From: Escherichia coli
GTDB taxonomy: Bacteria; Pseudomonadota; Gammaproteobacteria; Enterobacterales; Enterobacteriaceae
DNA length: 64,000 nt
Assembly (NCBI RefSeq): GCF_003334785.1
Contig: NZ_QOWV01000004.1
Strand: one strand, 5' to 3'
Part shown: positions 18,559 through 53,630 of the stretch, piece after piece
How the letters are laid out: each line of letters opens with the position of its first letter
Position numbering within the stretch: position 1 is the first letter of the stretch
Notes under the pieces: generated by a model
The model's input: only the letters and a program-made list of their open reading frames with translations
What the model was told of the DNA's origin: nothing
Database searches by the model: none
Position numbers and translations under genes: made by a program

Positions 18559-19443
18559 ATGTCTCATTTAAAAGACCCGACCACGCAGTATTACACTGGT
18601 GAATATCCCAAACAGAAACAACCGACGCCAGGCATCCAGGCGAAGATGACACCGGTACCGGATTGCGGCGAGAAAACCTATGTTGGTAGCGGTCGCCTGA
18701 AAGATCGTAAAGCACTGGTGACAGGGGGCGATTCCGGAATAGGTCGCGCTGCCGCCATCGCTTACGCGCGTGAAGGGGCTGACGTGGCGATCAGTTATCT
18801 TCCCGTGGAAGAAGAAGACGCTCAGGATGTGAAAAAGATCATTGAAGAATGCGGACGCAAAGCCGTTCTGCTGCCAGGCGATTTAAGCGATGAGAAATTT
18901 GCCCGTTCGCTGGTTCACGAAGCGCACAAGGCGTTAGGCGGGCTGGATATTATGGCGCTGGTCGCCGGGAAACAGGTTGCCATTCCGGATATTGCAGACC
19001 TCACCAGCGAACAGTTTCAAAAGACCTTTGCCATTAACGTTTTCGCGCTGTTCTGGCTAACCCAGGAAGCGATCCCCCTGCTACCGAAAGGTGCAAGTAT
19101 CATCACCACTTCGTCAATCCAGGCATACCAGCCAAGTCCGCATTTACTGGACTATGCGGCTACGAAGGCGGCGATTCTGAACTACAGCCGTGGCTTGGCA
19201 AAACAGGTCGCGGAGAAAGGTATTCGGGTGAATATTGTCGCGCCAGGCCCGATCTGGACAGCACTGCAAATTTCCGGCGGACAAACGCAGGATAAGATCC
19301 CGCAGTTTGGTCAGCAAACGCCGATGAAACGTGCGGGGCAACCGGCGGAACTGGCCCCTGTATATGTTTATCTGGCAAGTCAGGAGTCGAGCTACGTCAC
19401 CGCAGAAGTGCACGGCGTGTGCGGCGGCGAGCATTTAGGTTAA
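18559..19443 (+). CDS. yghA: NAD(P)-dependent short-chain dehydrogenase YghA
   Basis: 294-aa ORF with [11 protein letters not shown]ossmann motif. Confidence 0.95.
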
Positions 19444-19447
19444 AAAA

Positions 19448-19476
19448 ATGCCCGGTTGTGAAAAGCAACCGGGCAT
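19448..19476. terminator. Bidirectional hairpin terminator between yghA and exbD
   Basis: atgcccggttg-tgaaaag-caaccgggcat flanked by A-run upstream (T-run on minus strand). Confidence 0.6.
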
Positions 19477-19504
19477 CATTGTGAATTCACTCTTACCTGA
19501 TGTG

Positions 19505-19710
19505 GCGAAAACGCCTTATCCGCCTACAAACGCATGAAGATTCAACATGTTGCAATAGATTTTGTAGGCCTGATAAGCGTAGCGCATCAGGCATTGAGCA
19601 CCTAATGCCGGATGCGTCGTGAACGCCTTATCCGGCCTACAAACGCACGAAGATTCAACATGTTGCAATAGATTTTGTAGGCCTGATGAGCGTAGCGCAT
19701 CAGGCAATTC
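19505..19710. repeat. BIME/REP cluster: two tandem ~84-bp units
   Basis: Units 19511-19592 and 19623-19706 near-identical, each containing inverted REP-like arms gcctacaaa / tttgtaggc. Confidence 0.85.
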
Positions 19711-19714
19711 TACT

Positions 19715-20140
19715 TTACTTCGCTTTGGCGGTTTCTTCGCCGACCAGACCTATCTTCAGGTAACCCGCCTGATGCAGCGTATCCATTACCTTCATCAACG
19801 TCTCGTAATCGACGGTTTTGTCCGCTCGGAAGAAGATGGTGGTGTCTTTCTTGCCTTCGGTTAACGCATTCAACGCCGTAATCATTGTTTCATCGGTGAC
19901 CGGATCGTTACCGATAAACATCGAGTTGTCTGCCTTCACCGACAGATAAACCGGTTTTTCCGGGCGCGGCTGCGGCGTGCTGGTAGAAGCAGGCAAGTTC
20001 ACCTTCACATCTACCGTCGCTAACGGTGCCGCCACCATAAAGATAATCAGCAGAACCAACATCACGTCGATAAACGGCGTCACGTTGATATCATGCATTT
20101 CGCCGTTATCGTCGAGGTTTTCGTTAAGATGCATTGCCAT
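19715..20140 (-). CDS. exbD: TonB-system biopolymer transport protein ExbD
   Basis: 141-aa ORF MAMHLNENLDDNGEMHDINVTPFIDVMLVLLIIFMV... Confidence 0.97.
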   Translation of the reverse strand: MAMHLNENLDDNGEMHDINVTPFIDVMLVLLIIFMVAAPLATVDVKVNLPASTSTPQPRPEKPVYLSVKADNSMFIGNDPVTDETMITALNALTEGKKDTTIFFRADKTVDYETLMKVMDTLHQAGYLKIGLVGEETAKAK

Positions 20141-25415: not shown

Positions 25416-25519
25416 GCTTTTTACGCCTCAAACTTTCGTTTTCGGGCATTTCGTCCAGACTTAAGTTCACAACACCTCACCGGAGCCTGCTCCGGTGAGT
25501 TCATATAAAGGAGGAACGT

Positions 25520-53363: not shown

Positions 53364-53630
53364 GGTAAAAAAACCTCACTAAAATTATGGTTACCAGAAT
53401 CAGGGCAGTCTTAGGAGTGGCGGCATATAGCCAAAATAACGTGAGCGGGTCCATGCCCGACAGAATCGTTACTCTCTCCCATCCGGACTCTAACCGTCGG
53501 CCCCGGAATTACACCGGATCTGCTGTCCTTTGAGTTCGCACCCAAAGCGCTCGCGGGCTTTCAACTGAGTTGATTTACCGCCGGTGGGGAATTTCGCCCC
53601 GCCCTGAGAATAAGCGGATTCACTATAACG
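53364..53630 (-). promoter_or_regulatory. FMN riboswitch (RFN element) in ribB 5' leader
   Basis: Minus-strand leader contains the conserved core ...ttctcagggcggggcgaaattccccaccggcggtaaatcaactcagttgaaagcccgcgagcgctttgggtgcgaactcaaaggacagcagatccggtgtaattccggggccgacggttagagtccggatgggagagagt (aptamer about 53470-53625). Confidence 0.85.

Follow-up and report, generated by a model that had tools for sequence, protein, structure and literature searches.

Tandem BIME-1-like modules of REP222 between yghA and exbD vary from zero to two units among Escherichia coli genomes

The yghA–exbD intergenic region

The window examined here is a stretch of 64,000 nucleotides of Escherichia coli DNA (contig NZ_QOWV01000004.1) in which yghA (18559–19443, plus strand) and exbD (19715–20140, minus strand) are convergent and separated by an intergenic gap of 271 bp. 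Both open reading frames end in TAA, at 19441–19443 for yghA (so named in matching genomes) and at 19715–19717 on the minus strand for the gene annotated exbD. MG1655-derived records match a 451-bp query across the locus at 100% identity. In K-12 no annotated gene separates yghA (b3003) from exbD (b3005), and a repeat_region feature is absent from the NC_000913.3 annotation of this gap.

A hairpin with a 12-bp stem and an A7 tract at its left occupies 19447–19477, and the array described below lies next to it, as had been predicted. A terminator acting in both directions is expected to have a GC-rich hairpin with a U-run after it on either transcribed strand; here the U-run is seen on the exbD (minus) strand only. 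The hairpin nevertheless figures among mapped terminators, as a bidirectional one serving exbB:exbD:yghA, at MG1655 3150546–3150582 (bioRxiv 10.64898/2026.03.23.713779, supplement), which corresponds to window positions 19443–19479, and in that listing the terminator is adjoined by REP222. In alleles where the array is missing, A7 and TTTTTATTT flank the hairpin symmetrically to give a textbook bidirectional terminator; in filled alleles the REP block takes the place of the T-tract on the yghA side (19478–19490), and this replacement may explain why yghA transcripts run into REP222. The hairpin itself was considered as a REP and rejected, as it fits the Y and Z consensus sequences poorly, and weak Rfam matches to STnc310, Thr leader and EF3314_EF3315, all lying on it, are far under their gathering scores.

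Two head-to-tail units with a 113-bp period

The original prediction held that two nearly identical units of about 84 bp are present between yghA and exbD, at 19511–19592 and 19623–19706. These segments are indeed identical in 80 of 84 aligned columns, the differences being the substitutions T/C at 19535/19648 and A/G at 19575/19688 and a 1-nt indel. At 39 nt, the longest exact direct repeat is far above chance when set against 300 dinucleotide shuffles (mean 8.5, maximum 12). The duplication thus stands, but the unit is larger than proposed: the homology extends about 15–17 nt leftward of these segments into the left half of the Y unit, which is decayed in the first copy, and the array consists of two head-to-tail units with a period of 112/113 bp spanning 19494–19705. 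A repeat search recovers it as two direct repeats, 19522–19593 against 19635–19706 (72 nt, 97%) and 19496–19522 against 19608–19634 (27 nt, 81%), and over the full period 95 of 114 columns are identical. The inverted arms gcctacaaa (19522–19530) and tttgtaggc (19561–19569) are likewise present as described, but they enclose a gap of 30 nt and not a core of about 40 bp. Tandem Repeats Finder returned no rows for the array, because two copies with a 113-bp period are outside its scoring range.

Open reading frames of 40–81 codons overlap the array mechanically, at 19500–19622 (plus), 19516–19707 (minus) and 19619–19864 (plus), and could be read as small protein-coding genes, with the repeat then a chance similarity or a by-product of coding. 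That reading is for practical purposes refuted: shuffled sequences yield exact repeats of at most 12 nt where 39 nt are found, the block is missing from 29% of genomes with the flanking genes intact, and the sequences fit the non-coding REP consensus at a place where K-12 annotates no gene.

Anatomy of the array

Scoring against the Y and Z1 consensus sequences quoted in PMC11208160 resolves four palindromic units (PUs). PU1 (19494–19527, plus strand) is a decayed Y unit, matching the consensus at 30 of 35 positions, with a 1-nt deletion and a weak hairpin. It is followed by a 36-nt L spacer (19528–19563, plus strand), which can be aligned to its counterparts in paralogous Y-L-Z1 elements, and by PU2, a Z1 unit on the minus strand (19563–19592; 29/30). 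A 13-nt linker, ATTGAGCACCTAA (19593–19605, plus strand), joins the heads of PU2 and PU3 and falls within the Rfam match discussed below. PU3 (19606–19640, plus strand) is a near-consensus Y unit (33/35) with ATCCGGCCTAC at 19630–19640, and it is followed by the L spacer of unit 2 (19641–19676, plus strand), with an IHF-like site at 19653–19665, and by PU4, the second Z1 unit (19676–19705, minus strand; 28/30), whose stem begins 9 nt past the exbD stop codon. Alignment of two-unit, one-unit and empty alleles defines a 233-bp block, 19481–19713, that is missing from the empty-site allele, with boundaries ambiguous by 1–3 nt. The distal flank bears some resemblance to the 3′ end of exbD, but this likeness is weak and the DNA A-rich, too little to support a target-site duplication.

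Stable hairpins form on both strands at PU2, PU3 and PU4, with energies of −12.9 to −17 kcal/mol (z −3.2 to −5.2); the PU4 hairpin gives −15.3/−16 kcal/mol, and PU1 is weak at −9.6/−8.8 kcal/mol compared with −17/−15.5 for PU3. The 83-nt stretch containing the inner inverted pair (19561–19643) folds as a hairpin of −42.3 kcal/mol (z −6.9), and on either transcript the whole array can form one long hairpin of −111 to −113 kcal/mol (z about −8). When a 99-nt unit is used as a query it matches a median of at least 40 places per genome.

Each L spacer contains a putative IHF site, ATTCAACATGTTG (19540–19552 in unit 1), which matches WATCAANNNNTTR at 12 of 13 positions in both units; this assignment comes from consensus matching, and the aligned L motifs of the paralogs fit equally at 12/13 in the same positions. 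A 10-bp palindrome in the L spacer lies at 19544–19553 and 19657–19666. Three of four sampled paralogs have it as CAATATATTG, the 2013C-4282-type allele as CAACATATTG and K-12 as CAACATGTTG. Its two substitutions are symmetric, so that the palindrome is restored; about 1000 two-unit genomes break it again in unit 2 (CAACCTGTTG). The symmetry may be due to chance, since the changed positions correspond to the N4 of the IHF consensus.

The array is REP222, built of BIME-1-like modules

The feature is REP222, which is already catalogued in E. coli K-12: EcoCyc-derived tables list exbB, exbD and yghA with 'REP222, 5 REPs' (REPt222a-e; PMC10100675), compared with which we count four typable palindromic units and one non-REP hairpin. 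The prediction of a REP/BIME array is therefore correct, in that four palindromic units match the published consensus sequences; they fold as stem-loops, lie in an extragenic position at 3′ ends, and belong to a high-copy family.

Each 113-bp unit consists of a Y unit and an inverted Z1 unit arranged tail to tail across an L spacer, as in the elements called BIME-1, RIB or RIP. This architecture (Y, L with an IHF site, Z1) is credited to Boccard & Prentki 1993 and Oppenheim et al. 1993 in the account given by PMC2817692, which also makes the general statements linking BIME-1 with IHF and BIME-2 with gyrase. The likeness extends to the spacers themselves, which align with the elements at gldA–yijF, gyrB–yidB, rnpB–yhaC and mscK–rsmS and keep a CAA-N4-TTGAAT core resembling an IHF site. 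REP222 differs from a standard BIME-1 in having two modules and four PUs instead of a single module, in carrying a locus-private CAACATGTTG in L where paralogs have CAATATATTG, and in the decay of its outer Y unit. It is not a BIME-2, since its Z units fit Z1 (29/30 and 28/30) and match Z2 at just 28/37, and its tail-to-tail spacer is the 36-nt L motif whereas BIME-2 has the short S. The array is thus better filed as an atypical BIME of tandem BIME-1-like units, in the wording of PMC2817692.

REP222 also shares features with BIME-2 and atypical BIME arrays such as REP325, namely alternating inverted PUs in tandem, a short head-to-head linker and action as a 3′-UTR element; REP325 has six repeats, however, and REP222 has two. 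Like REPINs, REP222 comprises inverted REP pairs that form long hairpins, occur in many copies and are polymorphic for presence or absence, but in contrast to the REPIN/RAYT system its changes in copy number are explained by homologous recombination between its own units.

The inner Z1-linker-Y inverted pair (19567–19637, minus strand) is a REP doublet and matches the Rfam model of naRNA4, RF02564, at 61 bits, a marginal pass over the gathering score of 59.5; the plus strand scores 44.9 bits, and naRNA4 is the sole Rfam family over its gathering score in this region. The minus-strand sequence is sense for the exbD 3′ UTR, and a slightly supra-threshold match there might indicate a dedicated small RNA of the naRNA4 type, a HU-binding nucleoid organiser, encoded at this site. 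We regard this as highly improbable. The naRNA4 RNA is itself just a Z2-linker-Y REP pair from REP325, so any REP doublet scores on its model; the Z unit of the doublet here is Z1 where naRNA4 has Z2; a stronger match (92.6 bits) is present elsewhere in the window at 8521–8597; and a search for a promoter-like site at the array found none. In addition, REP325/naRNA4 was reported to be without measurable effect on nucleoid compaction and to act locally as a 3′-UTR element (bioRxiv 10.64898/2026.03.23.713779). The match reflects the generic resemblance between REP doublets.

The element at 8521–8597 is a Y-linker-Z2 REP doublet (naRNA4 92.6 bits on the plus strand, 60.1 on the minus) and also bears a target sequence for IS621 at 8590–8600. 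Other Rfam features of the window at gathering thresholds are two SIB antitoxin RNAs (62312–62461 and 62687–62836), an FMN riboswitch (53467–53615) and the ES173 sRNA (25418–25481).

Copy number among E. coli genomes

That the copy number may differ between strains had been anticipated, and comparison of 5426 complete E. coli genomes bears this out, with zero, one or two units present. Alleles were distinguished with junction-specific probes of 46–55 nt, in which each arm flanking the junction was shorter than 28 nt, and with a query made of one unit, of which two-unit genomes cover no more than 72%. The inner Z1-linker-Y junction is present in 3672 of the 5426 genomes. The empty-site junction, with a 38-bp intergenic region containing the hairpin only, is found in 1571 (29%); single units of the K-12 type occur in 106 (2%), and an older type of single unit (2013C-4282/E69-like) in 16 (0.3%). 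About 60 genomes fall outside these classes. A probe for the four-PU array of strain SCPM-O-B-8794, described below, found none in the complete E. coli genomes. Among the strains with two units are K-12, C41(DE3), ATCC 8739, O157:H7, O111, O121 and O145; UPEC and O2:K2:H1 isolates are among those with the empty site.

In 3605 genomes the 451-bp query is covered to 80% or more. Such coverage does not by itself tell one unit from two, since pieces that overlap are merged; from this figure we estimate about 3500 intact two-unit arrays (~64%) and about 170 or more that are interrupted. One of the 3672 junction-bearing genomes has two inner junctions, which could represent a three-unit array or a duplicated locus. 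Counting places matched by an L-spacer probe suggested some 1150 single-copy genomes, and we rejected this class as an artefact, as a common unit-2 SNP, CAACCTGTTG, removes the 28-nt seed; AQ15 and W150 have normal two-unit arrays.

The two units are of local origin

Genomes without the array match unit 2 best at one of its Y-L-Z1 paralogs, with only 83–89% identity, at gldA–yijF, gyrB–yidB, rnpB–yhaC or mscK–rsmS. Alignment with these paralogs shows that the L spacers of both units have in common a set of private states, AAAC, GAAG, CAACATGTTG and one extra T. A probe of 44 nt designed on this variant of L matches 3766 genomes, at no more than two places per genome, always on the chromosome and at this locus only, and the number is close to that of the 3672 junction-bearing and 106 single-unit genomes together; sought in the empty-site genomes, the variant was never found. 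Since these L variants are private to the locus and common to both units, we conclude that the units are of local origin, and the proposal that they are related by duplication is upheld.

The 13-nt sequence joining the units does not derive from the flanks; it is a generic inter-PU motif, and strain SCPM-O-B-8794, whose array at this site is built differently, has it between a Z2 and a Y unit with 11 of 13 positions conserved. The expansion was therefore not a plain slippage duplication of flank-to-flank DNA, and template switching, exchange with another BIME or RAYT-mediated events are possible routes. A more radical alternative is that two BIME-1-type elements inserted independently side by side. 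Both the linker and the left half of the Y unit depart from what a flank-to-flank tandem duplication predicts, the same linker is present in another array architecture in another lineage, and RAYT transposases are thought to mobilise REP elements (PMC2817692). Independent insertion is nonetheless very unlikely, as at least five L-spacer states are common to both units and missing from all sampled paralogs, the L variant is at no other locus in the 5426 genomes, and the nearest paralog is at most 89% identical compared with 97% between the units over 72 nt. Local duplication is the reading we favour.

Single-unit alleles

The K-12-type single-unit alleles are chimeras, with unit-1 sequence on the left and unit-2 sequence on the right. 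Strains 98202 and 23713 combine the unit-1 T (19535) with the unit-2 G (19688), and strain SL124 combines the unit-1 Y unit with the unit-2 C and G, so that at least two crossover intervals are represented. The G in Z1 is derived relative to both the Z1 consensus and the outgroups. Judged from these sequence junctions, the K-12-type single-unit alleles are recurrent deletion derivatives of the two-unit array, the recurrence following from the presence of at least two different crossover points among them.

The opposite polarity, with the K-12-type single unit as ancestor of the two-unit array, has in its favour that a single module is the state in E. albertii, E69 and 2013C-4282-type alleles, and that the number of mutational steps is similar under either polarity. 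We nevertheless consider it unlikely: it leaves the chimeric structures with their two or more crossover points to be accounted for, it would demand that unit 1 reverted to the consensus A whereas the single units carry the derived G, and K-12-type single units are rare (106 of 5426 genomes). Deletion from the two-unit array is preferred.

Filled and empty haplotypes in Escherichia

To place the array in a deeper history we searched species-representative genomes with a codon-degenerate exbD pattern, which retrieved 16 loci. At the corresponding position E. albertii carries a single decayed Z1-L-Y module, and the flanks are homologous on either side. One intact module is present in strain E69, and strain SCPM-O-B-8794 has the order Z1-short spacer-Y-linker-Z2-L-Y, whereas in Escherichia sp. 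MOD1-EC7003 the site is empty. The presence of one unit at the same site in E. albertii indicates that occupation is old and predates the E. coli/E. albertii split. In E. albertii NBRC 107761 just the last ~25 nt of yghA appear to lie beside the hairpin before the sequences diverge, and yghA seems to be truncated or missing at this position in E. albertii.

Outside the genus, a Y-like hairpin with a T-run after it lies behind exbD in Salmonella diarizonae and in one of three Citrobacter amalonaticus genomes, and the terminator in these species resembles a Y PU (GCCGGGTAAGGCG...CCCGGC, then the T-run); Kosakonia, Shimwellia and Rahnella have unrelated terminators there. On these resemblances, the presence of a REP-like hairpin downstream of exbD may predate the genus Escherichia.

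All empty alleles read AAA-TAA-AAATG and all filled alleles AAG-TAA-AG..AATT, and these signatures hold over flank haplotypes whose divergence reaches 3% within E. coli and about 5–6% between species. Because they are constant across the flank haplotypes, the empty and filled alleles constitute two old haplotype classes. One might go further and propose that the polymorphism has been kept across Escherichia by selection, not by drift or recombination, with module number (0, 1 or 2) acting as a lineage-specific dial; this we regard as quite unlikely. If true, REPs would set the output of ExbB/ExbD and YghA through 3′-UTR stability, convergent read-through and the hairpin 9 nt past the exbD stop codon.

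IS621 insertion and RNA decay

IS621 is an IS110-family element with a bridge-RNA recombinase. Its 11-nt target, ATCAGGCCTAC with a CT core, has been reported together with natural IS621 sites in REPs (PMC11208160), and it is present exactly, on the minus strand, at 19564–19574 in PU2 and 19677–19687 in PU4. In NZ_CP073360.1 (724300–727400) IS621 has inserted in PU2 at ATCAGGC|CT|AC, with CT on both sides and the array otherwise intact, an ordinary instance of the published behaviour of the element from which it differs in no respect. A locus-oriented junction probe for this or a very similar insertion matched 316 records (355 genomes) at 80% coverage or more, which is an upper bound only, because IS621 copies in other Z1 units can reach the same coverage; subtraction of the other counts gives about 170–235 genomes with IS621-interrupted arrays, a few percent of the total.

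The RNA covering the array is known from earlier work on yghA. Northern blots revealed a full-length RNA of ~1000 nt and a REP-containing intermediate of ~300 nt, with half-lives of 2.8 and 6.2 min respectively, and both were more stable in the presence of NaF, after inactivation of RNase E and when the degradosome scaffold was lost (PMC10100675). REPs have been argued to be local, context-dependent terminators and stabilisers in 3′ UTRs, and convergent gene pairs with a REP between them have higher expression; genome-wide there is no general gain in half-life for genes with terminal REPs (all bioRxiv 10.64898/2026.03.23.713779), so that stabilisation, where it occurs, depends on context. Ribosomes are reported to stall, and translation termination to be slowed, where a REP lies no more than 15 nt from a stop codon (Liang et al. 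2015, as cited in PMC12306157).

Taken together, these observations are very probably best explained by REP222 being two tandem modules of the BIME-1/RIB type that arose by local duplication, undergo recurrent loss and have a 3′-UTR role. In the sequence of events that we propose, one Z1-L-Y module would have been at the site before the E. coli/E. albertii split and would then have been duplicated locally within E. coli; the 97%-identical copies recombine and repeatedly delete back to one, and a separate, old empty-site haplotype persists in 29% of genomes. As others have demonstrated, the array is transcribed as 3′-UTR RNA and its hairpins yield the long-lived ~300-nt yghA intermediate, which is cleared with the help of RNase E and the degradosome. 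By analogy with other members of the family, the hairpins may hinder 3′-to-5′ exonucleases and reduce read-through of both convergent transcripts, each L spacer would offer a predicted IHF site, and the Z1 hairpin 9 nt past the exbD stop would be within the ≤15-nt range for slowed termination. The Z1 units serve as natural landing sites for IS621, as the insertion in NZ_CP073360.1 exemplifies.

As an element REP222 is ordinary, in that its class, the decay of yghA RNA, the proximity of the terminator and the preference of IS621 are all published. What this analysis adds is the census at the level of one locus, which provides a possible natural allelic series for the effects of REPs on a convergent gene pair, and the finding that occupation of the site is older than the E. 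coli/E. albertii split.

In the IS621-bearing record NZ_CP073360.1, the exbB product (WP_000527844.1) is named 'tol-pal system-associated acyl-CoA thioesterase', apparently through misannotation of ExbB.
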